Shown: positions 10,757 through 53,925 of the stretch, one piece after another
How positions within the stretch are numbered: the stretch's first letter is position 1
Layout: each line of letters starts with the position of its first letter
Origin: an uncultured Clostridia bacterium
GTDB lineage: Bacteria; Bacillota; Clostridia; Oscillospirales; Ruminococcaceae
Direction: 5' to 3'
NCBI GenBank assembly: GCA_944386455.1
Contig: CALXBC010000003.1
Location: 29,872-93,871, forward strand
Length of the DNA: 64,000 nucleotides
Notes under the pieces: generated by a model
The model's input: only the letters and a program-made list of their open reading frames with translations
Database searches by the model: none
What the model was told of the DNA's origin: nothing
Made by a program: the position numbers and the translations under genes

Positions 10757-10771
10757 AAATAAGCTTTATAA

Positions 10772-10848: not shown

Positions 10849-10852
10849 CCAG

Positions 10853-27855: not shown

Positions 27856-27874
27856 GTTATAGTAATTTATTTGT

Positions 27875-29436: not shown

Positions 29437-29973
29437 TCAATAATTTTCTGCCTTGACCTGGAAGTAAGCCTGCGGATGTGCACAGACCGGGCATACTGTC
29501 GGAGCAGTGGTCCCCACATGAATATGTCCGCAGTTTGCGCACTGCCAGACTACGATATCGGGCTTGCGGAACACCTCTCCCTTTTCCAAATTGGCCAGCA
29601 GCTTGCGGTAACGTTCCTCATGCTCTTTTTCAATCTTAGCGACGCCCTCAAACAGCTCGGCGATCTTGTCAAAGCCCTCTTCCCGGGCAACCTTCGCAAA
29701 ACCCGCGTACATATCGGTCCATTCGTAGTTTTCGCCTTCTGCGGCATCCTTCAGGTTATCAGCTGTGGAACCGATGCCGTTATGTACCAGCTTGAACCAC
29801 ATCTTTGCATGTTCCTTTTCGTTGTTGGCGGTTTCTTCAAACAGGGCGGCGATCTGGTTATAACCCTCTTTTTTGGCAGCTGAGGCATAATAGGTATATT
29901 TGTTTCTGGCCTGGGATTCTCCCGCAAATGCTGCCATCAGGTTTGCTTCTGTTCTGCTTCCTTTGAGTTCCAT
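29437..29973 (-). CDS. rbr: Rubrerythrin
   Basis: ESQARNKY and ...NEKEHAKMW... / ...EKEHEERY di-iron ExxH motifs, plus the C-terminal rubredoxin CANCGH...CPVCAHP. Confidence 0.93.
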
Positions 29974-29976
29974 GAT

Positions 29977-30381
29977 TCATTCCTCCATATTTTTGTTGTT
30001 TTTATCGCAATCCGGGCAGATGCCCCGAAATACAATATCACATCCGTGCAGCACAAATCCTTGTGGAAACTGTGCCTGTCTTCCGATTGCATCAAGATTT
30101 TCCATTTCAGCGTCGAAGACCTTTCCGCAGCTTTCGCAGCGGATATGGCAGTGCGGCGTCATTCTGAAATCAAAACGGTCAGCGCCGCTTGGCATTGCAA
30201 CGCACCGGATTTCTCCCAGCCGTGCCAGCAGGTGAAGATTACGGTAAACCGTGCCTTTGCTGACAGCAGGATGCTTTGCATGCACCGCCTGATAAACCTC
30301 TTCCGCGGTCGGATGGCATCGCAGTTCTTTTACGGCGGCGAGTACCATGTTCCGCTGCATGGTGTTTCTGGTAGCTTTCAC
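29977..30381 (-). CDS. perR: Fur-family peroxide-responsive repressor
   Basis: 134 aa. wHTH ...GTVYRNLHLLARLGEI..., HCHIRCESCGKVFD and C-terminal CPDC. GTG start with AAGGAAGAAG Shine-Dalgarno. It sits upstream of rbr. Confidence 0.82.
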   Translation of the reverse strand: MKATRNTMQRNMVLAAVKELRCHPTAEEVYQAVHAKHPAVSKGTVYRNLHLLARLGEIRCVAMPSGADRFDFRMTPHCHIRCESCGKVFDAEMENLDAIGRQAQFPQGFVLHGCDIVFRGICPDCDKNNKNMEE

Positions 30382-30397
30382 AGGACTTCTTCCTTAA

Positions 30398-30446
30398 TAA
30401 GAATTATTCTCATTAAGATTATAACGGAATAAGATCAGTTTGTCAA
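30398..30446 (-). promoter_or_regulatory. perR-rbr promoter with overlapping Fur/PerR-type 7-1-7 box
   Basis: Minus strand reads TTGACA, 17 nt spacer, TATAAT, followed immediately by the palindrome TGAGAAT-A-ATTCTTA (30398-30412). Confidence 0.6.
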
Positions 30447-30991
30447 GCATTTTTGTTGCAGGAGCAGCGGCGTTTGATTTCATGAACGGCAGCGGCTGGA
30501 AATCCGGCGGAAAATGCTTCACATATCGCGCAAAATTTGTCTGCCGCGGTGACCAGAACACTTTCGCGGCAGCGTGGCGGAATCGGATTGAGAGGGAACA
30601 TATGCCTGACGATAATGTCCCGTTCCTTGGCGTTAAGTGTGTAATCCCTTTCTGCATTTTGGAGCGCCAGTTTCGCATGATGCAGTCCGTGCAGCCGGCG
30701 GCCGGGATGGGGGATGTGCCAGTCATAGAGAAAATAATCATGGAGCAGCGCACCCCGTATCAAACTTTTTTCATCGACGCGAAGGTGCAGTTTTTTCGCC
30801 AGCAGCAGGCTGAAATATGCCACTGCAACCGAATGATCATAGCATGAGATCCTGCCATGCTGAAAAAACTGCTTTTCCGCCTGCATGCTTCTGGAGCAGA
30901 GGATCGCCTGTCCGTGTGCTGCTACCAGGCAAACGGCGTATTTCCGCAAAAGCCGTTTCTTTTGCTCAGATTCCGTCGTAATCGTCGCCAT
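30443..30991 (-). CDS. HD-domain phosphohydrolase
   Basis: YDHSVAVAY... and GALLHDYFLYDW (HD motif). Start is uncertain, and the gene overlaps the 3' end of the upstream YibE/F gene by about 26 nt. Confidence 0.7.
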   Translation of the reverse strand: MATITTESEQKKRLLRKYAVCLVAAHGQAILCSRSMQAEKQFFQHGRISCYDHSVAVAYFSLLLAKKLHLRVDEKSLIRGALLHDYFLYDWHIPHPGRRLHGLHHAKLALQNAERDYTLNAKERDIIVRHMFPLNPIPPRCRESVLVTAADKFCAICEAFSAGFPAAAVHEIKRRCSCNKNA

Positions 30992-32261
30992 CCTTCCAAT
31001 CATCCATTGAAAAATAAGATTTCGGTTCGGGCATCGGCGGCCGGCCATGCTCCGGCTCGGGCAGTCTGTCTTCATCGTCTTCTTCCCGCCGGGCGGCAGC
31101 AGGCATCTTTTTCCGGGTGTATAAAACCGAGCAGACAAAAGAGGTCAGCGGGATGGTCAGCAGAATGCCGATGCTTCCGGCGAGGGCATTGAGGATTTCG
31201 ACCACAATGGCCTCCCGGTTAAGCAGTCCGGTCAGCGAGCTGGTGTAGGCGATCATCAGCAGCGTCATGGAGAGAGAACTGCCGATGTAGGCCAGCACCA
31301 GTGTATTGGCCATTGTTCCCATCATGTCCCGGCCGATGGTGATGCCCGAACGGTAAAGATCCTTGGCGGACGCATTCGGCAGATTGACCTTCAGCTCGTA
31401 CAAAGCGGATGCAACGGACATGGCAACATCCATGATTGCCCCGATCGCCCCAATGATGATGGAGGCAAAAATGATTGCCTTAAGGTCAATATGACCATGC
31501 GGATTGAGCATATACAGATTGATGGAGTCTTCTTCCAGCCACCCGGTCAGGCGGATGATACTGTCCATAACAACGGTAAGCAAACCGGAAACCGCCATGC
31601 CGCTGAAGCATCCGATTCCTGCCGCAAAGCTTTTGCGGTCAGCACCGTTGATGATCAGAAGGGTCATGACTGTAATAAAAATACAGGTCAGAATAGACCA
31701 GAAATAGATGTTCTGTGCAGACATGACCGCAGGGATAAAGACCAGAAACACGGCTAAAAAGGTAAACGCCAGAGAGACAATGGTATTAATACCTTTCATC
31801 CGTCCGAATATCAAAAGCCCCACTCCAAACAGAACCGCCAGAATCAGCAGCGGATCAAAGCGGACATATTCTCCCATGATCCAGCCGCGGGTTTCGGATT
31901 CGGTGTCCTCATATAGCAAAACCTTGTCTCCGATTTCGACTTCCTTCAGCTCAGCGGGATAGACCGAGTCAATCTGCTGGGTTGCAGTCAGCACCGTGCC
32001 TTTTCTTTCGCCGCTTGTGACCCTGGCCTCAAAGGTCACAGTGGTGATTCCGCTGAAAGAGCCGTCCTCGGCAAGATCGCTGCGGGATATGATCTTTGTG
32101 ACTGCGGCCTTGACGGGAACGCGGGTATCAGCGCCCTCCGCTGTTTCCAGACCGCGGGTGGCAATCCGGTTTCCAATCACAACATAGAGGATGGATAGTA
32201 CAATTGTAATCAGATATACCAGTGTTTTCTTTTGAAAAAGAACAGATTTGATTTTTTGCAT
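30966..32261 (-). CDS. YibE/F-family integral membrane protein
   Basis: 431 aa. N-terminal transmembrane helix plus an extracytoplasmic beta domain, then about 7 transmembrane helices. Acidic C-terminal tail. Confidence 0.7.
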   Translation of the reverse strand: MQKIKSVLFQKKTLVYLITIVLSILYVVIGNRIATRGLETAEGADTRVPVKAAVTKIISRSDLAEDGSFSGITTVTFEARVTSGERKGTVLTATQQIDSVYPAELKEVEIGDKVLLYEDTESETRGWIMGEYVRFDPLLILAVLFGVGLLIFGRMKGINTIVSLAFTFLAVFLVFIPAVMSAQNIYFWSILTCIFITVMTLLIINGADRKSFAAGIGCFSGMAVSGLLTVVMDSIIRLTGWLEEDSINLYMLNPHGHIDLKAIIFASIIIGAIGAIMDVAMSVASALYELKVNLPNASAKDLYRSGITIGRDMMGTMANTLVLAYIGSSLSMTLLMIAYTSSLTGLLNREAIVVEILNALAGSIGILLTIPLTSFVCSVLYTRKKMPAAARREEDDEDRLPEPEHGRPPMPEPKSYFSMDDWKDGDDYDGI

Positions 32262-40716: not shown

Positions 40717-42081
40717 ATGCCGTCCGGCCGTATGGAGCAGTACCGCAGAATCCTGAAGCAGAGCTCGCGTCTGTTTCATGCGGTACAGGCAGTACCTTTG
40801 CCGGAAACAACGGACGAAAACTATACGCCGGCACTGGCAGGCAGTCATGTATTTGGTCCTGCACTCAGCGGATTTATGCTCTGGCTGCTTCGTGAAGCAG
40901 TAAACAGCGGAAAAAAGCGGCTGTATTTTCTGGCACGGGACGGTTATTTCATGTATCAGGCCGCACTGATTTTCTGCGAACGTCTATGCCTGCCGCTGGA
41001 ATGCCGCTATCTGAGCTGCTCGCGCTATTCGCTGCGGGTACCTGTTTATCATCTGGATCACGAGTCTGCACTTGATTATGTCTGCCGGGGCGGAATCGGC
41101 GTTACCCTGCAAAAAATTCTTGCGCGGGCCGGACTGACTGCAGAAGAACAGAAAAAAACGGCAGACTGCCTGCGGCTTTCATGCGGCTTTGACGACGTGC
41201 TCCCTGCCGGGCAGCTGACAGCAATCCGCCGTCTTCTGGCAAATTGCCGTGTATTTCTTGCAGATATGGATCAGCATTCCGGGACCGCGTATCCGTTCCT
41301 CTGCGGTTATCTGCGGCAGGAGGGGCTGCTTGACGGGGTGCCGGATGCATTGGTGGACAGCGGATGGGTCGGTTCGATGCAGAAGACGCTGGACACCGTT
41401 CTGTCCCGGCTGGGACGTACCCAATCGCTGAGCGGGTATTACTGGGGGCTGTACGGTCTGCCGCCGGAAGCTGTTCGCCGCAATTATCACTGGTACGACT
41501 TCGGTCCCGGGAACGGCCTGCTGCGAAAAGCGGCGTTCAATAATTGTTTATTTGAGGCGGTATTTACCGCCCCGCATGGAATGACGGTCGGTTACCGAGA
41601 AGAAAACGGCGTTTATCTTCCCTGCTATGGCGGTATCAGTGAGGAAAGAGTCAAATTTATTGAACTGCTTGGAAGCTATATTTTGGCGTTTATCCGCGTG
41701 TTTGCAGACCAGACGGCTGCCGCCGCACCGTCCCGCAGGGAAATATGGGAAGCGCGGGCGACGGCGGGAAGGCTGCTGGCTATGCTGATGAAGCATCCGT
41801 CCGCACAGGAAGCACAGGTGTTCGGGCAGATCCCTTTTTCGGATGATGTTTTGGAGGGGAAAGAAAATTTTCTGGCGGCGCAGATGACAGAGCAGGAGCT
41901 CATGGAAAATCATCTGTTGTTCCGTCTGTTCCACAGAAAAAGCGTTATCAGGCAAAGCGCGTGGTATGAAGGCAGCGCTGTTCGTGACAGCGCCCGGCCG
42001 CGCCGTCATATCCGTGGATATACGCTGTATCAGTATCTGCTGTATTTGGACAGGCAGCTGCGGTATCGGTTCGGCGGCTGA
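40717..42081 (+). CDS. Uncharacterised protein homologous to the C-terminal two-thirds of the 43723-45732 product (COG5610-associated domain)
   Basis: Shared blocks: LYFLARDGYFMY vs ILFLSRDGCLLL, and VDSGWVGSMQKTLD vs VDIGWAGSGAVMLD. Confidence 0.6.
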   Translation: MPSGRMEQYRRILKQSSRLFHAVQAVPLPETTDENYTPALAGSHVFGPALSGFMLWLLREAVNSGKKRLYFLARDGYFMYQAALIFCERLCLPLECRYLSCSRYSLRVPVYHLDHESALDYVCRGGIGVTLQKILARAGLTAEEQKKTADCLRLSCGFDDVLPAGQLTAIRRLLANCRVFLADMDQHSGTAYPFLCGYLRQEGLLDGVPDALVDSGWVGSMQKTLDTVLSRLGRTQSLSGYYWGLYGLPPEAVRRNYHWYDFGPGNGLLRKAAFNNCLFEAVFTAPHGMTVGYREENGVYLPCYGGISEERVKFIELLGSYILAFIRVFADQTAAAAPSRREIWEARATAGRLLAMLMKHPSAQEAQVFGQIPFSDDVLEGKENFLAAQMTEQELMENHLLFRLFHRKSVIRQSAWYEGSAVRDSARPRRHIRGYTLYQYLLYLDRQLRYRFGG

Positions 42082-42124
42082 TGAAGGCGAAAAAATAAGC
42101 CAAAAGGAAAGGGAGCGGTTTTAT

Positions 42125-42904
42125 TTGGAGCACATTGAAAAACGAAAGCATGGGCACTATGGCTTTGTGATCGCACAGCTGACATCGCGGGAGCTGAAGC
42201 GGAAATACGCGCGGTCCTATCTGGGGGTGGTATGGAGCGTGCTCAACCCTCTGCTTTCCATGGCCGTGCTGTCCCTTATTTTTTCCCGCCTGTTCCGGCG
42301 TTCCATCGACAACTATCCCATTTATTATCTGACGGGGTATATCCTATGGCAGACCTTTACCGGAGCAACGATCGCCGCAATGACCACGCTGGCTGACAAT
42401 AAAATGCTGCTGCTTCGGGTAAAATTTCCCATGGATCTTTTCATTCTGGCAAGAGTCTATACCGCAATGGTGAATCTGGGGTATTCGCTGATCGCCTATG
42501 CGGTGATGCTGGCTGTTTTCCGGGTCCCGCCGCGCTGGACCATGCTGTTTTCCCCGGCAGTGATCCTGTGCCTGTTTTTCTTTGCGCTGGGCGTTTCTTA
42601 TCTGCTGGCGGCCGCCTATGTCTTTTTTGGCGATATCAGGCACCTTTATACGGTATTTCTGACGCTGTGGATGTACTGCTCCGCCGTCTTTTACCCGGTC
42701 GGGCAGCTTCAGGGCTTTATGCGGACTCTGGTTGAGAATAACCCGCTGTTTATTTTTATTGACTGTCTTCGGACAGCCGTCATGCTGGGGCGGCTGCCGG
42801 GAACGGATCGGGTTCTGAAAATGCTTGTCTGGAGTATCGGGATGCTGCTGCTGGGCTTTTGGGTGTTCCGGAAAAACAAAAACAAAATTATGCAGCATAT
42901 ATAA
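42125..42904 (+). CDS. ABC-2 type polysaccharide/teichoic-acid export permease (TagG/Wzm-like)
   Basis: About 259 aa, 6 transmembrane helices. LKRKYARSYLGVVWSVLNPLL is the ABC-2 N-terminal signature. TTG start with AAGGGAG Shine-Dalgarno. Confidence 0.82.
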   Translation: MEHIEKRKHGHYGFVIAQLTSRELKRKYARSYLGVVWSVLNPLLSMAVLSLIFSRLFRRSIDNYPIYYLTGYILWQTFTGATIAAMTTLADNKMLLLRVKFPMDLFILARVYTAMVNLGYSLIAYAVMLAVFRVPPRWTMLFSPAVILCLFFFALGVSYLLAAAYVFFGDIRHLYTVFLTLWMYCSAVFYPVGQLQGFMRTLVENNPLFIFIDCLRTAVMLGRLPGTDRVLKMLVWSIGMLLLGFWVFRKNKNKIMQHI

Positions 42905-42940
42905 ACTGGGATCAGCGGGAAGGGAAGGAACTGCAACGAT

Positions 42941-43699
42941 ATGGAAACACAGGGAAAGACTGCGCAGGCGGAGATCGTGGTTGAAAACGTCACCATGCAG
43001 TTTCGGCGCGCCAAAGACGAGGCGGCGAGTCTGAAGGAAATGCTGATCCGCATGGTGCGGCGGGAGCATGGATATGAAACGTTTCTGGCGCTGGACAACG
43101 TCAGCTTTACCGTGAACCGCGGTGAGGTCGTGGGAATCATCGGGACCAACGGCTCCGGGAAAAGCACGCTTCTGAAGATCATTTCAGGTGCGCTGATACC
43201 TACTGCGGGAAGGGTGCTGGCAGACCGCTCGAAAATTCAGCTGCTGACACTTGGTACAGGCTTCGATCCTGAGCTGACCGGGCGGGAGAATGTTTATCTG
43301 AACGGCGCCATGATCGGGTACGGCAAAAAGGAGATCGACAGCCGCTATGGCGAGATCGTCCGTTTTGCGGAGCTGGATGGCTTTATGGAGGAAAAGGTGC
43401 GCAACTATTCCTCGGGTATGGTATCACGGCTTGGCTTTGCGGTCGCGACTGCGCGTGACGCACCCGAAATTCTGATTCTGGACGAGGTGCTCAGCGTCGG
43501 CGATCTGTTTTTCCGAAAAAAGAGCGAGGCGCGGATCCGGGAGATGATCCACGGCGGATCCACCGTGCTGATCGTTTCCCATACCCCTTCGGTTATCCGT
43601 AGCAACTGCACCAAAGCGGTCTGGATCGAAAAGGGCAGGCTGATCGCCGCAGGAGACCCAAAAACGGTCTGTGACGGCTATGAGAGCATGAGAAAGTAA
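42941..43699 (+). CDS. Polysaccharide/teichoic-acid export ATP-binding protein (TagH/Wzt-like, no C-terminal CBM)
   Basis: GTNGSGKST, YSSGMVSRLGFA, ILILDEVLSVGD. Confidence 0.88.
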   Translation: METQGKTAQAEIVVENVTMQFRRAKDEAASLKEMLIRMVRREHGYETFLALDNVSFTVNRGEVVGIIGTNGSGKSTLLKIISGALIPTAGRVLADRSKIQLLTLGTGFDPELTGRENVYLNGAMIGYGKKEIDSRYGEIVRFAELDGFMEEKVRNYSSGMVSRLGFAVATARDAPEILILDEVLSVGDLFFRKKSEARIREMIHGGSTVLIVSHTPSVIRSNCTKAVWIEKGRLIAAGDPKTVCDGYESMRK

Positions 43700-43722: not shown

Positions 43723-45732
43723 ATGAAGGAATGGCTTTACCGTCTGTTGGTCAGCCGCACGCCGCAGATAAAGGAGCGGTATCTGAACCGTCGAAACAGC
43801 GGAACCGGCCGGCTGTCCGGCCTTGCTTATCTTGTCTGGCTGAATTTGCGCTATGGGCTGATACCCGGCCGGCGGCAGGACATGTTTCTGCCGGATACCG
43901 CATTGCGCCTTCCCGGGGAGAGAAGCGAGTCGTCCCGGTCGGCACGGGAAGCCCCGGAGCAGTTTGCCCGCCGGCTGGCCGAGTTTGATATCGTTTCCTT
44001 TGATGTGTTCGATACTCTGCTGTTCCGCCCGTTTTCCGATCCCAGAGATATGTTCGGCCTGATCGGGCTGGAATTGAATTATCCCGGTTTTCAAAAGCTG
44101 CGCATCCAGGCTGAGGAACAGGCAAGACGGAAGAAATGGGAGAGCGGTGAAACGCGGGAGGTCACCCTTGGTGACATCTGGGAAATCATGGAACGGGAAA
44201 CCGGAATCCCGCGGCAAAAAGGAATGGATGCAGAATGGGAATGGGAGCGGCGGTGCTGTTTTGCCAATCCCTATCTGCTGCAGACTGTCAAAGCGCTTTG
44301 CCAAATGGGAAAAACCGTGATTGCGGTCTCCGATATGTACCTTTCCCGAAAACAGATCGAACTGCTTCTGAAAGAGAACGGGTTTCCCCGGCTGACGGAG
44401 CTTTTTGTCTCCTCCGAGTACGGCTGCTCCAAAAGCAGCGGCGGACTGTATGATCTTCTGCGGCAGCGGTATGGAAGAAAAGCACGAATCATCCATATCG
44501 GGGATAACATATATTCAGATGTGAAATCTGCTTCTTCTCACGGCGTCGAAACAGATTGGTATCCCAACGTTAACAGCGTGGGAAAGCCGTTCCGCCCCGG
44601 AGACATGTCCGCCCTGACCGGAAGCATTTACCGCGGGCTGGTCAATGCGCACATTCACTGCGGGTTAATGCAATACTCCCCTGAATATGAATATGGATTC
44701 CTGTACGGCGGCTTGTTTGTGACAGGATACTGCAGATTTATTCACACATATTGTCAATGTTATGGAATCGAAAAAATTTTGTTTTTGTCGCGGGACGGCT
44801 GTCTGCTGCTGCGCGCTTACCGTGCGATGTATCCCGAAGAAGCGCACCGCACCGCATATGCCTGCTGGTCCCGTCTGGCTGCCGTCAAGCTGACGGCGGA
44901 CATTTACAGAAGTGAATATTTTGAGCGTTTTTTATTCCACAGGACAGGCTCGCATATCACTCTGCGGCAGGCGCTGGACGGCATGGAACTGACCGATCTC
45001 CTGCCGAAGCTGTGCCGGGAGCGAAGCCTTGCGCCGGAGACAGTCCTGACGTATAAAACGGCCCGGGTTGTCAAACAATATCTGACAGAGCACTGGCAGG
45101 AGGTACTGTCTCATTACACGGAGCAGCAAAACGCTGCAAAATCCTATTACCAGGAGCTTTTGGACGGCTGCCGGACAGCGGCGGCTGTGGACATCGGCTG
45201 GGCTGGCAGCGGCGCGGTGATGCTTGACTGTGCCGTCAGCCGAATCTGGGGACTGTCCTGCCGCATCACCGGGATTCTGGCAGGCACCTTGTCGGCAAAC
45301 AGTCCTGAGGCAGATGCTGCCTCCCCGCTGCTTTGGGGCGGCAGGCTTGTAAGCTATTTGTTTTCCGAGGCAAATAACCGGGATTTATGGCGGTTTCATG
45401 ACGCAGACAAGAAACATAACCTGTACTGGGAGCTGCTGCTCGGGGCACCGGAGGGAAGTCTCATCGGATTCTATCCGAACCGGAACAACGCACGGGGCTG
45501 GCAGTGCCGCCTGAAAAAAAGCCATGCCGATCCTGCCAAAATCAACCAAATTCATCAGGGCGCCATGGATTTTGTACAACTGTTTCTGGAAACGGAAAAA
45601 AGGCTTGGGTTAACCGTCCCCATCAGCGGACGGGACGCCTATGCGCCGATGGCGGCTCTTTTCGGCAGACATAACCGGACATCCCGCAGAAAACTGGAGG
45701 ATCTTTTAGATGAAGCGCAGATCGTCTGTTAA
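43723..45732 (+). CDS. HAD-superfamily (COG5610-like) protein with large C-terminal uncharacterised domain
   Basis: FDIVSFDVFDTLLFRP (HAD motif I, DxFDT), AVSDMY, HIGDN. The C-terminal half is paralogous to 40717-42081. Confidence 0.7.
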   Translation: MKEWLYRLLVSRTPQIKERYLNRRNSGTGRLSGLAYLVWLNLRYGLIPGRRQDMFLPDTALRLPGERSESSRSAREAPEQFARRLAEFDIVSFDVFDTLLFRPFSDPRDMFGLIGLELNYPGFQKLRIQAEEQARRKKWESGETREVTLGDIWEIMERETGIPRQKGMDAEWEWERRCCFANPYLLQTVKALCQMGKTVIAVSDMYLSRKQIELLLKENGFPRLTELFVSSEYGCSKSSGGLYDLLRQRYGRKARIIHIGDNIYSDVKSASSHGVETDWYPNVNSVGKPFRPGDMSALTGSIYRGLVNAHIHCGLMQYSPEYEYGFLYGGLFVTGYCRFIHTYCQCYGIEKILFLSRDGCLLLRAYRAMYPEEAHRTAYACWSRLAAVKLTADIYRSEYFERFLFHRTGSHITLRQALDGMELTDLLPKLCRERSLAPETVLTYKTARVVKQYLTEHWQEVLSHYTEQQNAAKSYYQELLDGCRTAAAVDIGWAGSGAVMLDCAVSRIWGLSCRITGILAGTLSANSPEADAASPLLWGGRLVSYLFSEANNRDLWRFHDADKKHNLYWELLLGAPEGSLIGFYPNRNNARGWQCRLKKSHADPAKINQIHQGAMDFVQLFLETEKRLGLTVPISGRDAYAPMAALFGRHNRTSRRKLEDLLDEAQIVC

Positions 45733-46690
45733 GCGGCCGATGGTACTGTACCATGCAGTCAGCTCCTATCAGCTGCTGGAAGTCATGCTCCATCGGAAAC
45801 TGGTTCATTCTCAGGAACGGGCGGTTTTGCTTCTGCCCGACTTTATTACGGAAAAGTACCCCTGGTACCGGAAGCTGACTTCCTGTCACTTTTTTGATGA
45901 GGTGTACCTGTTCCCCTATCTGCATATCCCGCATACAAGCGAAGCACAGGTAACGGTTGATACGCTCGATGCCTGCCGTACTGTTCTGCCGTACCCTCTG
46001 ACCGCTTTTCAGGAAGTCTATGTCGCGGGTGCACATTTTTATTTTTCTCTTTGTCTGATTCAGCAGCAGATCCCATTTGTGTTTTTTGAGGACGCCGCCG
46101 GAATGCTGAGCCGTTCAGAAGAGCTTAAAAAAAACCTGTCTGTCAGGTTTCCGCTTCACGCTCAAATCGCGGCAAAATACGGGTTGTTTGACGGAAGCTG
46201 TCCCGCTGTCAGTCAGATCGTTTGTCTGAAAAAAGCGCAAACCAGGGACGTATCAGATCATAAATATCAAAATTTTTCGGTTATGGATGCGCTGGCGGGG
46301 CTTTCCCCAAAAGAGAGGCGGCGTTTCTGCCGGATTTTCCTGAAGCATCCGCTCCATACATCGGCGGATGCAGTGCTGCTGACCCAGCATTTTGCCAATC
46401 TGGGGATTCTGTCAGAGAACGGACAGCGGCAGCTGTATGCATCTCTGCGGGACGGACCGCTGCAGGGCGTCAGGCTGGTTATTAAAAAACATCCCGATGA
46501 CACGCTGGATTATCGTCTGATTTTTCCCGATGCCAGGGTGATCAGACAGGTGTTTCCGTCCGAGCTGCTGCCGTTCGTGTTCCGCAGAAAACCGAAAACG
46601 GTCTACACCTTCAGCTCGACCGGAGCAGAAAGCCTGAGCCCATATTTCTCGGTTGTCCGCCTGGACAGCGGACAGCCGGCAGGAAGGTGA
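45710..46690 (+). CDS. Putative glycosyltransferase with sialyl/Kdo-transferase-style motifs (paralog 1)
   Basis: FVFFEDAAG and VIKKHPDD align with the D/E-D/E-G and HP motifs. The N-terminus VLYHAVSSYQLLEVML parallels that of paralog 2. Confidence 0.45.
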   Translation: MKRRSSVKRPMVLYHAVSSYQLLEVMLHRKLVHSQERAVLLLPDFITEKYPWYRKLTSCHFFDEVYLFPYLHIPHTSEAQVTVDTLDACRTVLPYPLTAFQEVYVAGAHFYFSLCLIQQQIPFVFFEDAAGMLSRSEELKKNLSVRFPLHAQIAAKYGLFDGSCPAVSQIVCLKKAQTRDVSDHKYQNFSVMDALAGLSPKERRRFCRIFLKHPLHTSADAVLLTQHFANLGILSENGQRQLYASLRDGPLQGVRLVIKKHPDDTLDYRLIFPDARVIRQVFPSELLPFVFRRKPKTVYTFSSTGAESLSPYFSVVRLDSGQPAGR

Positions 46691-46694
46691 TTCT

Positions 46695-47804
46695 ATGTCA
46701 GAAAACAGAGCGCTGGTGATCGTCAACTCGGTGTATCAGCTTATCAATGCAGTCCAGATCAAGCGGTCGCTGCTTCATGGCAGACCCGCCGACCTTCTGC
46801 TGACCGACATCCTGCCGGACGCGCGGGATTATCTGCCCCGGCTGGAACAAACCGGCCTGTTTGACCGGGTCATCTTTGCGCTGAGCATGGAGACCAATCA
46901 AAAATATGCGGGCGCCAAAGAGCCGGAGCTCAGCGAATGCTACCACAATACCGCGAATTTTCTCCGCTGGGCGCTGAGCGATGAACTAACGGATTATGCA
47001 GAGATTTATTTTTCCAATTATGACGTGCTGACCAGGATGCTGGCCTGCCGTTTTTATCACCAGCCCTGTGCCTTTATTTGGTATGAGGACGGCTTTTCGA
47101 CCTATGTGATCGACTATCTGCGGGAGGACCGTGCGCCGGTCAACCGCCACCCCGACGGGCGAAAGATCAGGGACAAGGTGCAACGCGTCCTGCTGTACGA
47201 GCCTGCTCTTGCCATGCGGGGGGACAGACTCCCCAATGTAGCCCTGCCGAAGATCGACCGCAGGGACAGCGAACTGCGGGAGCTTTTCAACCATATTTTC
47301 GGCTATCGGGGCAGTGCGCGGCTGCCGCGCTTTATCTTTCTGGAGCAGTCCTTTCGCGCCGAGGGCATTCGTACCAACGATATTGACCTGATGCGGGAGT
47401 GCCGTGAAGCAGCGGGCGGCGATTTCATCGTTAAGCCGCATCCCCGCAACCGGGAGAATCTGCCGCAGGAAATGGGGCTGACCAGAAAGTACCCCGACCA
47501 TATACCGTGGGAATTGTTTCTGCTCAATCTGCCGGAGGATGAAAAACAGCAGCATACCTTGCTGACCGTCTGCTCCAATGCGGCGCTGACCGGCCGTCTG
47601 GTCTTCGGACTGGATATGAACACCGTGATGCTCTACCGTCTGTTTGAAGGAAAGGTGCTCTGGAAGGAGGACGCCACCTTATGGCGGTATCTGGAGCGGT
47701 TTCGGCGGGAGTTTGCAGGACGGAATTATTATGTGCCTCAGACACGGTATGCGTTGAGAAACACACTGATGTTTTTGGGAGGACAAAATGGAAAATCAGA
47801 TTAA
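46695..47804 (+). CDS. Putative glycosyltransferase with sialyl/Kdo-transferase-style motifs (paralog 2)
   Basis: FIWYEDGFSTY (EDG) and FIVKPHPRN (HP). N-terminus LVIVNSVYQLINAVQI. AGGAAGGTG Shine-Dalgarno. Confidence 0.5.
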   Translation: MSENRALVIVNSVYQLINAVQIKRSLLHGRPADLLLTDILPDARDYLPRLEQTGLFDRVIFALSMETNQKYAGAKEPELSECYHNTANFLRWALSDELTDYAEIYFSNYDVLTRMLACRFYHQPCAFIWYEDGFSTYVIDYLREDRAPVNRHPDGRKIRDKVQRVLLYEPALAMRGDRLPNVALPKIDRRDSELRELFNHIFGYRGSARLPRFIFLEQSFRAEGIRTNDIDLMRECREAAGGDFIVKPHPRNRENLPQEMGLTRKYPDHIPWELFLLNLPEDEKQQHTLLTVCSNAALTGRLVFGLDMNTVMLYRLFEGKVLWKEDATLWRYLERFRREFAGRNYYVPQTRYALRNTLMFLGGQNGKSD

Positions 47805-49533
47805 GGTGTCGGTGATTATTCCCGTATATCAGGTGGAAAGCTATCTGGAACGGGCAGTTGATTCCGTTTTGGCGCAGACGCTGGAGGAAAAGGAGATCAT
47901 CCTGGTGGATGACGGAAGCACAGACGCCTCTCCGCAGATCTGCGACTGCTATGCGCAGTCGTATCCCGAGCTCATCCGGGTCATACACAAACCAAACGCA
48001 GGCCTCGGCATGGCGCGCAACAGCGGTGTGGAAGCTGCAAAAGGGAAGTATGTTGCATTCCTGGATTCGGATGATACGGTGGAGACGGAGATGTATGAGC
48101 AGCTGTATCAAAAAGCGGAAGCAGGAAATTATGACATAGTGATGTGCGATGTGAACATTATCTATGTGGAAGAAAACAGACAGTCGCTGTCCAGGTCCTA
48201 TCCATCGGAAGAGATTGACCTGCCCGACTATATCGCGAACGGAAACAATATCACATACAGCGTCAACAAGCTGTTTCGGCGGGAAATCTGGGAAGAAAAC
48301 CGCTATGAAAAAATGCTGTTTGAGGATATCGCACTGATTCCTGCGCTGATGACGCGGTACCGACGGGTGGGATACGTCCAGAAAGCGTTTTACAACTATT
48401 ACCGGCGGCCGAACACCATCTCCACATCATTTACGGGGAGTATGGCGGATATCATCCGCGCGTTCCAGATGTTTCTGGATAACAGCAGCCCGGCATACCG
48501 GGAAGAGGCGGTTTACTGCATCGCCAAACAGCTGTACTGGAACATGACAAAGTCGCGGGTGCTGTTCCAGGCGGATTTTATCACGTTTCTGCAAAAAAAT
48601 GAAAAGGACTTCCGGCTCAATCGCTTTCTGCCAAAGGACCCGCAGACCAAAAAGCTGTTGGACTTTCTGGAGCAGAGAGTCCTGCCGGAACGGTTCATCT
48701 GCCCGCATATCGGACGGGAAATCCCCGCGGCATATTTCGAGCAGCTGCGGGAGCATTTTCCTCACGCAGAGCTTGTCCTTGCGGATGAAAATTTTTTTGC
48801 AGCAGAGCAGCCGCCCGCATCGGTTCGTGCGGCCATGACGGCCGGAAACACCGCCTTTGCCGAGGAATATCTCGCCCTGCGGATCCTCTGCGACCAGGGC
48901 GGGATCGTGCTGATGCCCTGGATGCGGGCGAATTTGAATCTCAAGCGGCTCCGGCTGAATCGTATTTTCTTCGGGTTCCGAGGCGGCGAGGAGCTGGAAA
49001 CCGGATGCTTTGGTGCAGAGAAAAGCCATTACGTTATTCAGGCACTGCTTATGACCTATCAAACGGAAAATCTCTACAATCAGGCGTTCCTGCCTCTCAG
49101 GGAAAGACTGCGGGACTTTTTGATTTTACGGTTCGGGCTGAAGCCGAACGGGAAAAGCCAGCTGCTCAAAAAGGAGATACAGGTCTGTTTGCCGAGTGTC
49201 CTTTCTTATGACATGCAGAATGGGGAAAACTGCTGCAAACGGGCGGATATCCCGGTCCCGGAGGGCTATCAGGCGGTAGAGGACGATGTGCTGAGGCTCT
49301 GGTCCGGCCGGATTCTGGAGAACTGGAATCTCTATAAAAAAGCGTTGGGCAGCGGCAAACCGCTTTCGCCGGATGCGTCCCCGCCTGCTGCACTCGGCGG
49401 AATTACCGAAGGGGAACTGGAAAGACAGCTTCATGAATTGGCAAAGCTTTACGAAAATTCGACCAGCTGGCGGATCACACGCCCGGTTCGGGCGCTGTCC
49501 GATCTCGTCAAAAAAATAGCAAGGAAAGGGTGA
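47788..49533 (+). CDS. Two-domain glycosyltransferase: N-terminal GT2, C-terminal GT32/Caps_synth-like region
   Basis: VSVIIPVYQVESYL, ILVDDGSTD, FLDSDD. The C-terminal AEEYLALRILCDQGGIVLMPW resembles the SDxxRxxxLxxxGG block of GT32-type enzymes but has no following DxD. Confidence 0.75.
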   Translation: MENQIKVSVIIPVYQVESYLERAVDSVLAQTLEEKEIILVDDGSTDASPQICDCYAQSYPELIRVIHKPNAGLGMARNSGVEAAKGKYVAFLDSDDTVETEMYEQLYQKAEAGNYDIVMCDVNIIYVEENRQSLSRSYPSEEIDLPDYIANGNNITYSVNKLFRREIWEENRYEKMLFEDIALIPALMTRYRRVGYVQKAFYNYYRRPNTISTSFTGSMADIIRAFQMFLDNSSPAYREEAVYCIAKQLYWNMTKSRVLFQADFITFLQKNEKDFRLNRFLPKDPQTKKLLDFLEQRVLPERFICPHIGREIPAAYFEQLREHFPHAELVLADENFFAAEQPPASVRAAMTAGNTAFAEEYLALRILCDQGGIVLMPWMRANLNLKRLRLNRIFFGFRGGEELETGCFGAEKSHYVIQALLMTYQTENLYNQAFLPLRERLRDFLILRFGLKPNGKSQLLKKEIQVCLPSVLSYDMQNGENCCKRADIPVPEGYQAVEDDVLRLWSGRILENWNLYKKALGSGKPLSPDASPPAALGGITEGELERQLHELAKLYENSTSWRITRPVRALSDLVKKIARKG

Positions 49534-49538
49534 AAATC

Positions 49539-50282
49539 ATGCGGACAATCGCAGTCATTCCGGCACGGTACGGCTCCAGCAGACTCCGGGGAAAACCCCT
49601 GATGGACATCTGCGGACGGCCGATGCTATGGTGGGTCTATCATCGGGTCAGACAGTCCAGAAGCATTGACGGCGTTTATATCGCGACCGACCATGATGAA
49701 ATCATGCAGACCTGCCGTCAGTACAGCATTCCCTGTATGATGACGGACAAGGAGCACAAAACCAGCACCGAGCGGGTGTATGAGGTGGCAAAATTTTTGC
49801 CTGCGGACATCTATGTCTGTGTCAACGGCGATGAGCCGCTGATTGAGCCGTCTATTGTGGAAAAGGTCGTACCGGAGCGTGTGGAGGGATTTTTTGCCGC
49901 CAATCTGATGACGAAAATATCCAGTCCGGTGGAAACGGTGGATGACACCAACATCAAGGTCGTGACCGACGAAGCGGGAGACGCACTGTATTTTTCCCGC
50001 AGTCCCATCCCGCATCCCAAAGCCAGCATCCGGTTTGATTATTACAAGCATCTGGGCGTGCTGGCCTATTCACCGGAGGCGCTGCGCTTTTTTGCCCGGA
50101 CGCCCAGAGGCAGACTGGAGCAGGTGGAGGACATCAACGAGCTTCGGTTTGTGGAACACGGCAAAAAGCTGCGGATGATTCCGGTGGATGCGGACACCCT
50201 TTCGGTGGATACCCTCAAGGATCTGGATTATGTGCGTCATGTGGTTGCGGAAAAGATAAAGAAAGGGGAGCTGAGATTATGA
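49539..50282 (+). CDS. kdsB: KdsB-type cytidylyltransferase (3-deoxy-manno-octulosonate cytidylyltransferase family)
   Basis: Collinear with E. coli KdsB: AVIPARYGSSRLRGKPL, IATDHDEI, TSTERV, VNGDEPLIEP, ALYFSRSPIP, HLGVLAY, E..ELRF. Confidence 0.85.
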   Translation: MRTIAVIPARYGSSRLRGKPLMDICGRPMLWWVYHRVRQSRSIDGVYIATDHDEIMQTCRQYSIPCMMTDKEHKTSTERVYEVAKFLPADIYVCVNGDEPLIEPSIVEKVVPERVEGFFAANLMTKISSPVETVDDTNIKVVTDEAGDALYFSRSPIPHPKASIRFDYYKHLGVLAYSPEALRFFARTPRGRLEQVEDINELRFVEHGKKLRMIPVDADTLSVDTLKDLDYVRHVVAEKIKKGELRL

Positions 50283-51892
50283 GCCAGCCGCGGATTCAGG
50301 TTCTGGACTGCACGCTGCGGGACGGCGGCTACATCAACGACTGGCGGTTCGGCAGACGGACCATTGCAGCCGTTCTTGACAAGCTGGAGCAGGCGGGCAT
50401 CGACATTATCGAATGCGGGTTTCTGACCCGTATGGTAAAAGAGGACGGCTGCTCCCTGTTTGGCGGACCCGACGAAATCAAGGGATTGCTTCCGAAACGG
50501 GAAAGAACATCAATGATCGTCGCTATGATTGCAATCGGGGAAAAGGAGCTGCATCCCATAGAACTGCCGCCCTGTGACGGCAAAAGCATCAGCGGGATCC
50601 GGCTGACCTTTCACAGGCAGGAGATCAATCAGGCCGTCGAATGGGCAGGCATCATCATGGATAAGGGCTACAAGGTATTTATGCAGCCGGTCGGGACAGC
50701 GTTCTACAGCGACATCGAGCTGCTGGAACTGGTGAAAAAAATGAACGCACTGCGGCCCTATGCCTTTTATATTGTGGACACCCTGGGCAGTATGTACCGC
50801 GGAGATGTTTCCCACCGTTTTTATCTGATTGACAAAAATATGGCACCGGAAATCCGTCTGGGCTTCCACGGGCACAACAACCTTCAGCTTGCCTTTTCCA
50901 ACGCGCAGGTACTGGGGAAAATCCAGACGCCGCGGACGCTGATTCTCGACTCCTCGGTTTATGGCATGGGACGCGGCGCGGGCAATCTGCCGACCGAACT
51001 GATCACCCAGTATATCAACCGCAGCATTGCACCGCGGTATGACGTGACAACGGTCATGGACATCTATGACGGATATATCGCGGCAATCCGCAGAGAATAC
51101 GACTGGGGCTATGCAGTACCTTATCATATTGCAGCCAGCAGCGTCTGCCATCCGAACTATGCTTCCTATCTGCTGAACAAACAGACCCTCACCATGAAGG
51201 ATATCAAAAAAATCATTGAGTCGATCCCGGCGGAGTATCGGGTGTTATATGACCAGAAGCTGATTGAAGAGCTGTATGTCCGGTTCCAGAGCAGAAAAAT
51301 CGACGACAGTGAATCTGTGTTCACACTGTCTCAGATGATGGCGGGGAAAAAGCTGCTGCTTCTGGCTCCGGGGAAAAGTCTCTTGCAGCATCGCGGCACA
51401 GTCCTGTCCCGGATCGAAAAAGAAAATCCGTTTGTTATCACCATTAATTTTGCAGACCCGCTCTACCGTCCAAATGCCTGCTTTATCAGCAACCATAAAC
51501 GGCTGGACACCATCGGTCAGGAACTTGCCGCGTGGAAAGAACTTCCGGTCATCCTGACATCCAACCTGCCGGCCGGGATCAGGGATTGTCTGTATGTTGA
51601 CTATGACAGCTACACCAACGGTGATGAAATGATTTCCGACAATGCGGGACTGATGCTGCTGAGCCTGCTGAAGAAATGCGGTGTGCAGCATGTCATGCTG
51701 GCCGGATTTGACGGCTTCCGCCACAGCTATGGGGAAAATTACTACAGCGAGGATCTGGACTTTGGTGCAGACCAGCGGGAAGCAGAGGAAAAACAGCACA
51801 GAATGAGAAAAAAACTTCAGGAATTTGCGCACACCACTCAGCTGGAGTTTCTGACTCCTTCTGCATATGAGTGGAAAAACACAGCAGAATAA
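50279..51892 (+). CDS. Fusion: N-terminal DRE-TIM (HMGL-like) aldolase domain, C-terminal CstII/DUF115 (MptE/Maf)-like domain
   Basis: IQVLDCTLRDGGYINDW and ...GFHGHNNLQLA... are DRE-TIM metal-binding motifs. In the C-terminal half, LLLLAPGKSL...VITINFA...ACFISNHKR and SDNAGLMLLSLLKKCGVQHVMLAGFDGF resemble the GNGPSL / TsG...GiDfY pattern. Confidence 0.6.
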   Translation: MSQPRIQVLDCTLRDGGYINDWRFGRRTIAAVLDKLEQAGIDIIECGFLTRMVKEDGCSLFGGPDEIKGLLPKRERTSMIVAMIAIGEKELHPIELPPCDGKSISGIRLTFHRQEINQAVEWAGIIMDKGYKVFMQPVGTAFYSDIELLELVKKMNALRPYAFYIVDTLGSMYRGDVSHRFYLIDKNMAPEIRLGFHGHNNLQLAFSNAQVLGKIQTPRTLILDSSVYGMGRGAGNLPTELITQYINRSIAPRYDVTTVMDIYDGYIAAIRREYDWGYAVPYHIAASSVCHPNYASYLLNKQTLTMKDIKKIIESIPAEYRVLYDQKLIEELYVRFQSRKIDDSESVFTLSQMMAGKKLLLLAPGKSLLQHRGTVLSRIEKENPFVITINFADPLYRPNACFISNHKRLDTIGQELAAWKELPVILTSNLPAGIRDCLYVDYDSYTNGDEMISDNAGLMLLSLLKKCGVQHVMLAGFDGFRHSYGENYYSEDLDFGADQREAEEKQHRMRKKLQEFAHTTQLEFLTPSAYEWKNTAE

Positions 51893-51967
51893 TCAGAGAG
51901 AAAGGAACGAACCGATGAACAATGCCATCCCGCCGGCGTGTTTTTCGGATTTCGGAAGGCGAACGAA

Positions 51968-52630
51968 ATGAAGCGGTGCGTTGTATTTGATATGGACGGT
52001 ACGCTGGTCAACTCCTATCCGGGAATATTTGATTCCTATGCATGGACATTTCAGCGTCTGGGAATTCCCTTTTCAGGGGATGCATTTGTCAAAAAAGCCA
52101 TCGGGGCACCTTTGCCATGGGTGTTTGAACACCTGTGCGGGCTGAACGCCTTACAGACTGCGGCAGCGATCAGGTACTACCGCAGTTATTATGCCGAAAA
52201 AGGGAAATGCGGCGTCACCGTTTATGACGGGATCGGCGGCATGCTGAAACGGCTGAAGCACGCGGGCTGTCTGATAGGAACCGCTACCTTGAAAAAAGAA
52301 GTCTTTGCCCGGGAAATACTGGAGCAGTTTCAGCTGTCGTCTCTATTCGATTTGATCTGCGGAACCGACGGGCGTGACAGCTTTACGAAAGCAGGCCTGC
52401 TGCGGCGGTGCATGAATGCCCTGAGCGTCTTGCCGGAGGAAACGGTTCTGGTGGGAGACAGTCTGTTTGACAAAGAAGGCGCAGAGGAAGCAGGCGTGGA
52501 TTTTCTGGCAGTCACCTATGGCTTTGGTTTTCAAACGCCGGAAGAGCAGAAACAGCTGCCTGTGGGAATGACAGCCGCCTCTGCGGAAGAGATTGCCGAT
52601 ATTCTGCTGAAAGGAGAGAAACAGGGATGA
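51968..52630 (+). CDS. HAD-IA phosphatase (phosphoglycolate-phosphatase-like)
   Basis: VVFDMDGTLVNS, GTAT.K and VGDSLFDKEGAEEAG motifs. Confidence 0.8.
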   Translation: MKRCVVFDMDGTLVNSYPGIFDSYAWTFQRLGIPFSGDAFVKKAIGAPLPWVFEHLCGLNALQTAAAIRYYRSYYAEKGKCGVTVYDGIGGMLKRLKHAGCLIGTATLKKEVFAREILEQFQLSSLFDLICGTDGRDSFTKAGLLRRCMNALSVLPEETVLVGDSLFDKEGAEEAGVDFLAVTYGFGFQTPEEQKQLPVGMTAASAEEIADILLKGEKQG

Positions 52631-53925
52631 CAGCACGCAAAAAAGTGATTTTAGGTATTATAGCGGGCGTATTGGTGTTTTTGCTGCTGGCCGCAGCCGC
52701 CGTGGGCGCTTATTATTCCGTCATCCTAAAACGGACGCTGGAACAGGTTGCCGCTCCGCAAAAGCAAAACGTTGTTTTTTCCGTCTATGTCCTGGCTGAT
52801 GACGCCGCAAAGGGGCTGGAGGACACCGCAGCGCTTTCTTACGGCATCAATCGCTCGGAACCGGATCAGGACAGCATGACGCGTGCGCTGGGCGAGCTTG
52901 GCGAAATGCTGGGCAAAGAACTGCATACGGTCGGCTATGATAGTCTGTTTTCCCTCGCGGACGGGCTTCAGCAACAGGAAATTCGTGTCATCCTGCTGAA
53001 TGAGGCGCTTCTGGACAGCCTTGCGGAAACAGAAGGATATGAGTGGACGGCGGAGGGACTTCGAAAGCTGGAATCCGTATCGATCGGGCAGGAAGAACTG
53101 ACAGCAGAGCATACAGAAGGCCAGAGCGGTACGGCTGAGGAATCTGTTCGGCCCCCGTCCGAACTGCCGCAGGGCTTTGTGGTCTATATCAGCGGAATCG
53201 ACCGCTACGGCGGACTGACAGCGCGCTCCCGCAGCGATGTGAATATTCTTGCGGCTGTCAATACGAAAACCAAAAATATGCAGCTTGTTGCAACCCCGCG
53301 GGATTATTATGTGACTTTTTCCCGGGCGAAGGGGCAAAAGGACAAGCTGACCCACGCGGGTATCTATGGGGTAGAAATGTCGGTTGACGCACTGGAACGG
53401 TTATACGGCGTCGAGATCGACTACTGGCTCCGGCTGAATTTTACGGGGTTCGTGGAGATTATTGACGCGCTCGGCGGGGTCGAGATCTATTCAGAGCATA
53501 CTTTTACCGTAAAGAACATCAAAACATATCAGACAGGGATGAATCAGGTCAACGGACTGGAAGCATTGGCCTTTGCCCGGGAGCGGTACAGCTTTGCCAA
53601 CGGAGATTACCAGCGTGCCAAAAACCAGATGGAGGTCATCCGCGCCGTGATCGACAAATGCACCTCACCTGCACTGCTGAAAAATTACCGTTCCGTCATG
53701 GACGGGATTGCCGGCAGCTTTTCCACCAATATGCCCGAAGATCAGATTCTTTCTCTCGTTAGGATGCAGCTGGCATTCGGCGGAGAATGGAAGGTATCCT
53801 CCTATACGGTAAGCGGTACCGGTGCTTCCCGGGAGACCTATTCGATGCCGGGACGGAAGCTTTATGTCATTCTGCCGGACCAGAAATCTGTCAGTCAGGC
53901 AAAGGCGTTGCTGGCCGGCGTATAG
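52627..53925 (+). CDS. LytR-CpsA-Psr (LCP) family glycopolymer-peptidoglycan ligase
   Basis: N-terminal transmembrane helix. RSDVNILAAVNTKTKNMQLVATPRDYYV and HAGIYGVEMSVDALERLYGVEIDYWLRLNFTGFVEIIDALGGVEI. Confidence 0.9.
   Translation: MTARKKVILGIIAGVLVFLLLAAAAVGAYYSVILKRTLEQVAAPQKQNVVFSVYVLADDAAKGLEDTAALSYGINRSEPDQDSMTRALGELGEMLGKELHTVGYDSLFSLADGLQQQEIRVILLNEALLDSLAETEGYEWTAEGLRKLESVSIGQEELTAEHTEGQSGTAEESVRPPSELPQGFVVYISGIDRYGGLTARSRSDVNILAAVNTKTKNMQLVATPRDYYVTFSRAKGQKDKLTHAGIYGVEMSVDALERLYGVEIDYWLRLNFTGFVEIIDALGGVEIYSEHTFTVKNIKTYQTGMNQVNGLEALAFARERYSFANGDYQRAKNQMEVIRAVIDKCTSPALLKNYRSVMDGIAGSFSTNMPEDQILSLVRMQLAFGGEWKVSSYTVSGTGASRETYSMPGRKLYVILPDQKSVSQAKALLAGV

Follow-up and report, generated by a model that had tools for sequence, protein, structure and literature searches.

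An aldolase fused to a remote MptE-like domain as candidate synthase in a proposed CMP-ulosonate gene cassette of Clostridia, Bacilli and Bacteroidota

The 64,000-nucleotide stretch of DNA analyzed here (contig CALXBC010000003.1 of assembly GCA_944386455.1, from an uncultured Clostridia bacterium; termed the window throughout) carries, in a polysaccharide-synthesis context, a cytidylyltransferase gene followed by a single open reading frame (ORF) in which an aldolase-type barrel is fused to a C-terminal domain resembling the pyrophosphokinase MptE (Table 1). This fusion is the subject of the present analysis. We consider it fairly probable that the fusion acts as synthase within an aldolase-based cassette for a sugar acid resembling cytidine-monophosphate-activated 3-deoxy-D-manno-octulosonate (CMP-Kdo), consisting of cytidylyltransferase, fusion and usually a phosphatase, and working with neither of the phosphoenolpyruvate (PEP)-dependent synthases KdsA and NeuB. 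On this reading the locus holds a module for CMP-ulosonate biosynthesis whose synthase is non-orthologous. The family of the fusion is large, cross-phylum and uncharacterised.

According to the ORF list of the window and its translation, the frame of the fusion is uninterrupted and starts with ATG. The start codon is preceded by the ribosome-binding site AAAGGGGAG and overlaps the stop codon of the cytidylyltransferase gene by 4 bp (ATGA). The genome of the window contains a single copy of the fusion. All six sequence motifs quoted in the initial annotation were located in this ORF, namely LDCTLRDGG (residues 9–17), HGHNN (197–201), LLLLAPGKSL (359–368), VITINFA (386–392), ACFISNHKR (400–408) and SDNAGLMLLSLLKKCGVQHVMLAGFDGF (453–480). 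Relatives of the fusion are named "aldolase catalytic domain-containing protein" by NCBI.

Table 1. Position, strand and basis of assignment of the features discussed in the text (positions in the window).
Feature	Position	Strand	Basis
Aldolase–MptE-like fusion, whole ORF, 537 aa	50279..51892	+	ORF and translation
DRE-TIM metallolyase/HMGL-like barrel, residues 1–290	50279..51148	+	PF00682, 3dxi, Foldseek
Helical linker after the barrel, residues 291–337	51149..51289	+	Family alignment
Predicted remote MptE-like/DUF115 (PF01973-type) Rossmann-like nucleotide-binding domain, residues 338–537	51290..51889	+	Profile-profile comparison, model
KdsB-like CMP-ulosonate cytidylyltransferase	49530..50282	+	PF02348, E 6e-49
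HAD-IA (phosphoglycolate-phosphatase-like) phosphatase	51938..52630	+	PF13419, E 4e-28; NCBIfam
Two tandem sialyltransferase-like (polyST/GT52-like) transferases	45710-46690 and 46653-47804	+	Weak PF07388 and PF07922 matches
HAD + glycan phosphoribosyltransferase-like (ribofuranosyltransferase-like) protein, 669 aa	43723..45732	+	PDB 7shg, Bcs3 and HAD matches
454-aa protein	40717-42081	+	Weak match to the same Bcs3 region, E 1.3e-3
TagG/TagH-like ABC exporter pair, TagG start uncertain	41966..43699	+	ABC ATPase motifs in the sequence
LCP (LytR-CpsA-Psr) wall-polymer ligase	52627..53925	+	PF03816, E 3e-38

Searches yielded more than 7,500 clustered homologues of the fusion in the same length class (527–541 residues, 98% query coverage), and the best 120 were nearly all 522–555 residues long with a query coverage of 97–100%. 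For comparison, 80 loci were collected as one-genome-per-species contigs from other genomes (Clostridia, Bacillus, Gottfriedia, Paenibacillus, Bacteroides, Alistipes and Muribaculaceae), with identities to the window protein between 41% and 71%. Barrel and C-terminal domain share one unbroken frame in 78 of these loci, across Clostridia, Bacilli and Bacteroidota, and the fusion is intact in complete genomes (AP031437.1, NZ_AP024169.1) as well as in isolates of Solibaculum, Gottfriedia, Bacillus, Paenibacillus and Anaerosporobacter. The initial annotation had raised the concern that a frameshift or an assembly error might have merged two genes. With respect to the conservation in independent genomes, including complete ones, this explanation was rejected and its remaining probability is practically nil: the single frame recurs in the clustered proteins and in 78 of the 80 independent assemblies, the linker is conserved to the same degree as the barrel, and the title of the structure 3dxi ("N-terminal domain") implies a longer native protein. 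Within the family the 47-residue linker follows the pattern CHPNYA.YL..QTLT..DI...IP...YD..IE.LY..FQS..DD, and its identity of 0.72 in close loci and 0.49 in distant loci is level with that of the barrel. It is predicted to be helical, with low AlphaFold confidence.

Among 300 sampled Clostridia genomes, 12 besides that of the window contain a homologue spanning residues 5–530. Another 13 carry only distant (25–30% identity), unfused aldolases of ~340 residues, and one shows a 35% match over residues 5–332 within a 332-residue frame near a contig start. A search with the C-terminal domain against 1.84 billion representatives returned 733 relatives, of which the long ones carry the domain at residues ~332–530. 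Candidate stand-alone genes for this domain were rejected as fragments, since those matches of 200–400 residues that were examined either begin within the linker or prove to be chimeric, the domain being joined to truncated, unrelated enzymes (rhamnosidase, aminotransferase, SOR/SNZ). Furthermore, natural proteins of 751 residues (P0121, P0186) that unite the barrel, the MptE-like domain and a HAD_2 phosphatase occur as triple fusions in at least two sequence clusters, one of them on a 494-kb contig of an Acutalibacteraceae genome.

The assignment of the N-terminal half to the DRE-TIM metallolyases, as put forward in the initial annotation, was borne out by a match of residues 1–290 to PF00682 (HMGL-like) well above the cut-off (65.5 versus 29 bits, E 6.7e-18). 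This is the sole Pfam match, and no DAHP_synth_1 (PF00793) or NeuB (PF03102) domain was found in the fusion, which is proposed to work like the PEP-dependent synthases of the KdsA/NeuB type without being a member of their family. The best NCBIfam matches of the barrel are models of the DmpG-type 4-hydroxy-2-oxovalerate aldolase (E 7e-26). A phmmer search of the PDB with the full protein returned matches to the barrel only, the closest being 3dxi (E 2e-27), and the DmpG-type aldolases 4lrs, 8ih7, 1nvm and 4jn6 follow it in the PDB and Foldseek lists. The HMMER alignment pairs R14, D15, H197 and H199 of the barrel with R17, D18, H200 and H202 of DmpG (1nvm), which are the enolate-stabilising arginine and the Asp/His/His metal ligands. 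All four are unchanged in 79–80 of the 80 loci. Because these residues, like a tyrosine at position 18 that is discussed below, are invariant across the loci, the barrel represents a distinct, functional-looking subfamily of the class II pyruvate-aldolase-type barrels and not a DmpG orthologue. The fusion is not adjoined by an acylating acetaldehyde dehydrogenase of the DmpF type; its neighbours are the cytidylyltransferase and the phosphatase.

The cytidylyltransferase, a CTP_transf_3 enzyme, passes the NCBIfam cut-offs for KdsB subfamilies (256 versus 255 bits and 245 versus 193 bits), and its translation appears, judging from the 4-bp ATGA overlap, to be coupled to that of the fusion. In 68 of 79 loci the gene immediately upstream of the fusion codes for an enzyme of this family; across the loci the enzyme is of the KdsB type in 46 cases and of a shorter, PseF-like type in 27. 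At E 1e-25 the TIGR00466 kdsB model picks up KdsB-type partners only (3 of the 300 Clostridia genomes), and a count of the complementarity of KdsB and KdsA was dropped as uninformative because other loci use the PseF-like enzyme. Of the 75 loci with downstream sequence, 39 have a phosphatase gene next after the fusion. Three unrelated families replace one another in this place: haloacid dehalogenase (HAD) family IA (32 loci), Cof-type HAD (4 loci) and an inositol-monophosphatase-like family (3 loci). For the HAD gene of the window the listed ORF starts with GTG at 51938; the ATG at 51968, which follows GGAAGG and gives MKRCVVFDMDGTL, is the likelier start.

In the genome of the window, which is 97.8% complete, KdsA was not found (best score 110 bits versus a cut-off of 314), nor was KdsD/KpsF (49 versus 204 bits). 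Its sole NeuB (345 bits) is encoded on another contig (C17, ~26415-31062) together with its own CTP_transf_3 gene, the second and weaker one of the genome, at a distance of about 4 kb, and probably belongs to an independent cluster for a nonulosonic acid of the pseudaminic or legionaminic acid type. Because an intact aldolase-type site, the coupling to a CMP-ulosonate synthetase and the frequent presence of a phosphatase coincide with the lack of any detected canonical synthase for this cytidylyltransferase, the barrel is the best candidate for the C–C bond-forming step.

The C-terminal domain was modelled alone because the full-length model gave only barrel matches in Foldseek. The resulting AlphaFold model (predicted local distance difference test, pLDDT, 88.5; predicted template modelling score, pTM, 0.85) shows alternating strands and helices, and its best Foldseek matches in the PDB are SteA chains (probability 0.91–1.00, TM-score 0.44–0.45, E ~1e-2, top 9e-3). 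When 57 C-terminal domains of the family were scanned singly, 23 matched PF01973 below threshold (best E 8.4e-4), and no other Pfam family was matched by more than two of them. A profile of the 57 domains, run against the PDB sequences, found the archaeal MptE 8sd5 first (E 0.016), with both motif blocks aligned, and SteA (9hmz) second. For profile-profile comparison a PF01973 reference alignment was built from genuine domains of 19 Clostridia genomes; its profile was validated by the recovery of Maf (5mu5, 1e-21) and MptE (8sd5, 3e-13). Comparison of the 57-domain alignment with this reference by hhalign gave a probability of 91% (E ~1e-6, 134–137 columns), pairing L-A-P-G-K-S with S-A-G-P-S and D-N-A-G...L-A-G-F-D-G with G-G-S-V-A...I-G-Q-D, and the controls (the reversed query as well as six unrelated alignments taken from these loci) did not exceed 1.6%. 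Consequently, the likeness of the C-terminal ~200 residues to DUF115, as suggested in the initial annotation from the same two motif blocks, holds, and the domain is predicted to be a remote, divergent MptE-like nucleotide-binding domain.

The more specific relationship to GT42 sialyltransferases such as CstII, proposed at the same time, could not be upheld. The GT42 Pfam model (PF06002) is not among the matches of the C-terminal domains at E-values up to 1, CstII is missing from the top 50 Foldseek matches, and on the sequence level CstII is not found even with the genuine PF01973 reference profile. The pocket of SteA has been described to resemble that for ATP (adenosine triphosphate) in thiamine pyrophosphokinase and, to a lesser degree, that for CMP in CstII; guanosine or uridine diphosphate (GDP/UDP) stabilises the SteA of Corynebacterium (PMC12977500). 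A resemblance of the fusion to GT42 is therefore at most indirect, on the level of the fold and via the SteA pocket.

Across the 80 loci the pocket residues G365, N390, R408, T427-S428-N429, Y442, D454 and A475-G476-x-D478-G479 are essentially invariant; of those at the loop and the strand end, G365 is kept in 77 loci, G476 in 79 loci and D478 in 78 loci. At least 12 polar residues of the pocket are invariant despite an identity of the C-terminal domain of 33% in distant loci, where that of the barrel is 51%.

Upstream of the cytidylyltransferase the window contains two tandem transferases related to polysialyltransferases (polyST). In their family alignment the E of FFEDAAG and the motif K-x-H-P are invariant, and these may correspond to the D/E-D/E-G and HP motifs known from bacterial sialyltransferases. 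Genes of this kind occur in 58–61 of the 80 loci, and the tandem transferases are the probable users of the CMP-sugar. Their profile had no match in the PDB, so that they could not be connected by sequence to the Kdo-transferases of GT140, GT99 or GT107. The 669-residue protein further upstream matches the PDB entry 7shg ("Ribofuranosyl transferase", E 1.3e-7) and Bcs3, the capsule polymerase of Haemophilus influenzae type b (E 3e-5); ribofuranosyltransferase-like genes are found in 55–59 of the loci. With the 454-residue protein it shares one short BLASTP segment only (E 0.002). Judging from these matches, both proteins are probably glycan phosphoribosyltransferases of the phosphoribosyl-pyrophosphate (PRPP) type that add ribofuranose to a polymer. 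The exporter pair of the ATP-binding cassette (ABC) type is conserved upstream in close loci. A genomic context of synthesis and transfer of an acidic sugar, anticipated by the initial annotation, is supported, with a CMP-activated ulosonic acid as the sugar concerned.

The transferases are not the same everywhere. Seven loci (L041, L044, L049, L056, L058, L078 and L080, from Bacillus, Gottfriedia, Bacteroides, Alistipes and Ruminococcus) encode, ~0.1–2 kb upstream of the cytidylyltransferase, a stand-alone protein of 270–304 residues that is a genuine PF01973 member. Precisely these seven are devoid of polyST-like and ribofuranosyltransferase-like genes, which suggests that the stand-alone protein takes the place of the CMP-sugar transferase as a non-orthologous replacement. 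The genome of the window itself yielded no PF01973/Maf gene. Moreover, in locus L042 (a metagenome-assembled genome of Eubacterium sp., 2445-14897) the three-gene cassette resides in a Wzx/Wzy-type locus with Wzz, a tyrosine-kinase-like ATPase, Wzy and a MurJ-like flippase, and a TagB/TagF-like enzyme is encoded directly upstream of the cytidylyltransferase. From this setting it follows that the cassette is portable between assembly pathways.

On the basis of these findings the following sequence of reactions can be proposed. The barrel would condense pyruvate with an aldose, either free or phosphorylated, to a 3-deoxy-2-ulosonate, probably in the form of its phosphate ester, the neighbouring phosphatase would strip the phosphate from the ulosonate phosphate, and the KdsB-like enzyme would turn the freed ulosonate into the CMP-sugar. 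The sialyltransferase-like enzymes together with the PRPP-type ribofuranosyltransferase could then build a ribose/ulosonate polymer, to be exported by TagGH and attached to the wall by the LCP enzyme. Since the cassette has no conserved genes for the modification of sugars, the aldehyde partner is probably an aldose phosphate of central metabolism or a free aldose.

For the C-terminal domain three functions were ranked. Our first choice, made tentatively, is a catalytic, nucleotide-dependent step on a small molecule, most plausibly a phosphotransfer. The transferases vary from locus to locus while the fused domain stays constant, and for this reason the domain is expected to act on the invariant small molecules of the pathway and not on a variable acceptor. 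The phosphotransfer would be ATP-dependent and directed onto the aldose or the aldol product. It could thereby serve as an ATP trap on a reversible pyruvate aldolase, pyruvate plus ATP being the energetic equivalent of PEP, and it would account for the phosphatase. We infer this form of the step by analogy from the precedents of MptE and thiamine pyrophosphokinase.

A regulatory sensor of the CMP-ulosonate or another nucleotide, which would exert feedback control on the aldolase, was ranked second and is unlikely in our estimation. DRE-TIM enzymes such as LeuA and the citramalate and homocitrate synthases are regulated by C-terminal domains, and feedback by CMP-sugars is known from the sialic and pseudaminic acid pathways. 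Members of the fold group (MptE, Maf, SteA) bind nucleotides and CMP-sugars. The domain, with ~190 residues the smallest of this group, was found only in fused form and never as a stand-alone gene, and its faster evolution relative to the barrel would fit a sensor as well. However, the invariant polar residues at the strand ends, shared over three phyla, look like an active site, and Pfam scans revealed no sequence similarity to known regulatory domains of DRE-TIM enzymes.

Ranked third, and quite improbable, is a transferase resembling Maf or CstII that passes the CMP-sugar on to an acceptor, as the initial annotation had implied. The nearest profile relatives are indeed of the Maf type (PF01973), with the xGxS loop and the G-x-D block aligned, and a coupling of synthesis and transfer would be useful if the product is as labile as CMP-Kdo-like sugars are. 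Nearly every locus, however, has candidate transferases of its own beside the cytidylyltransferase, varying with the type of polymer, whereas the fused pocket is invariant. The domain is also too small to include an acceptor-binding part: it has no acceptor-binding lid and no additional domains, while Maf proteins comprise 400–900 residues and the stand-alone PF01973 protein 285. The family lacks an invariant histidine that would match the presumed catalytic base of CstII, and the residue two positions after D478, where the phosphate-binding tyrosine of CstII would lie, is phenylalanine here. No GT42 match was obtained by sequence or fold, and the aldolase and transfer steps would not be consecutive.

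Several points weigh against the proposed synthase and against phosphotransfer by its C-terminal domain. Literature searches found no biochemical evidence for any member of the family and no paper on it, so that, as in the initial annotation, a characterised example could not be named. The C-terminal residues 338–537 of the window protein have no Pfam match even at E 10 (the gathering threshold of PF01973 is 34.6 bits), and its model has no Foldseek match at E 1e-3, with MptE, Maf and CstII all outside the top 50. The full-length AlphaFold model reaches a pLDDT of only 65.6 and is poor at residues 224–339. The pocket contains just two invariant acidic residues, few for a pyrophosphokinase using Mg-ATP, and the enzymes known with the MptE-like fold act either as pyrophosphokinases or as CMP-sugar transferases, whereas sugar kinases are not known among them. 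About one third of the loci have no phosphatase. The barrel itself lies far under the NCBIfam aldolase cut-offs (80 versus 286 bits for TIGR03217 and 91 versus 229 bits for NF006049), and the catalytic His21 of DmpG is replaced by Tyr18, which is found in 80 of 80 loci. Given this replacement and these scores, the barrel may catalyse something other than a simple aldol reaction of pyruvate.

The last two observations are also what could be claimed for an altogether different chemistry of the barrel, i.e. a Claisen-type condensation or the cleavage of another 2-oxo acid, with the cytidylyltransferase activating a non-sugar acid or a phospho-compound; CTP_transf_3 enzymes reportedly activate phosphonates as well. 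We regard this explanation as very improbable. By sequence and fold the closest relatives of the barrel are pyruvate aldolases and not acetyl-CoA-dependent synthases, the cytidylyltransferase satisfies KdsB subfamily models, the neighbouring transferases carry sialyltransferase-type motifs, and no phosphonate gene is among the neighbours that recur across the loci. The cassette of three genes is small, so that the preferred function of the fusion as ulosonate synthase can be tested directly in vitro.

Sugars of the Kdo and sialic acid type are not known to be made by synthases other than the PEP-dependent KdsA and NeuB. If the synthase function holds true, its aldolase-based replacement would be a new enzyme solution to a textbook pathway, present in thousands of genomes of gut-associated Firmicutes and Bacteroidota, and a large family so far annotated only by its aldolase catalytic domain would obtain a function. 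Kdo-like, "teichulosonic" wall polymers would then exist in Gram-positive commensals, with relevance for immune recognition and as phage receptors, and the MptE-like/DUF115 fold would gain a third type of role beside the pterin pyrophosphokinase and the flagellin glycosyltransferases. A further-reaching version remains speculative and, in our view, rather doubtful: the fusion might be a self-contained, ATP-driven ulosonate synthase, its MptE-like domain trapping the substrate or product of the aldolase by phosphotransfer, and hence a third convergent route to Kdo- and sialic-type sugars, possibly for a previously undescribed Kdo analogue in ribose/ulosonate wall polymers of gut Clostridia, Bacilli and Bacteroidota.

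Compared with known systems, the barrel shares with the DmpG/BphI aldolases the PF00682 fold, the arginine of the L-R-D-G motif, the aspartate and the H-x-H ligands, and in both cases the barrel is followed by a helical region and a Rossmann-type partner on its C-terminal side. In contrast to these enzymes, the window barrel is only 20–25% identical to them, scores below their NCBIfam cut-offs, has tyrosine in place of His21 and is covalently attached to an MptE-like domain instead of being accompanied by DmpF. Moreover, DmpG/BphI work in aromatic catabolism, whereas the fusion occurs among genes of polysaccharide synthesis. The structure 3dxi, a structural genomics entry titled as the N-terminal domain of a putative aldolase (BVU_2661) from Bacteroides vulgatus, has the motifs RDGGY..W.F and HGH.NLQL in common with the window barrel. 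It differs in that the barrel alone was crystallised and no function was assigned, and a literature search found no paper citing it. Its title and the Bacteroides locus L049 suggest that it is a probable member of the aldolase–MptE fusion family.

With MptE (8sd5), the archaeal 6-hydroxymethyl-dihydropterin pyrophosphokinase, and Maf (5mu5), the flagellin nonulosonic-acid transferase, the C-terminal domain shares the G and S of the phosphate loop, the G-x-D strand end and the beta-alpha-beta order. It departs from the PF01973 family by an A-P-G-K-S instead of an A-G-P-S loop and by failing the Pfam threshold; furthermore, it is shorter (~190 residues), has invariant T-S-N, (H)K-R and D-N-A-G motifs of its own and is always fused to the aldolase. 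SteA (9hmz, 9hmy) is its top structural and second profile match, but the match is weak (E ~1e-2, 13–18% identity), and SteA is a membrane-associated regulator of cell division without known catalysis.

The proposed pathway follows the logic of the canonical CMP-Kdo route (KdsD, KdsA, KdsC, KdsB) and of the routes via the 9-phosphates of ketodeoxynononic acid (Kdn) and N-acetylneuraminic acid (Neu5Ac), in which C–C bond formation with a three-carbon 2-oxo donor is combined with a phosphatase and a cytidylyltransferase of the KdsB/NeuA family. In comparison with the CMP-Kdo route, the candidate synthase of the window is a DRE-TIM aldolase fusion instead of a KdsA or NeuB fold, and the phosphatase is of the HAD-IA, Cof or inositol-monophosphatase-like type across the loci, not KdsC. 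With respect to the polymer, the closest parallel is KrkA of Escherichia coli K13, in which a Kdo-transferase (GT140), a glycan phosphoribosyltransferase and a phosphoribosyl phosphatase build a ribose-Kdo capsule (PMC12887879). The window holds the same modules as the KrkA proteins of K13, K20 and K23, here as separate proteins and together with an ABC exporter, and by analogy its locus probably makes a ribose/ulosonate wall polymer. Its transferases differ from K13 KrkA in having no detectable match to any solved structure. Finally, the product of the window would be a Gram-positive wall polymer handled by TagGH and an LCP enzyme, whereas K13 relies on the canonical CMP-Kdo pathway.

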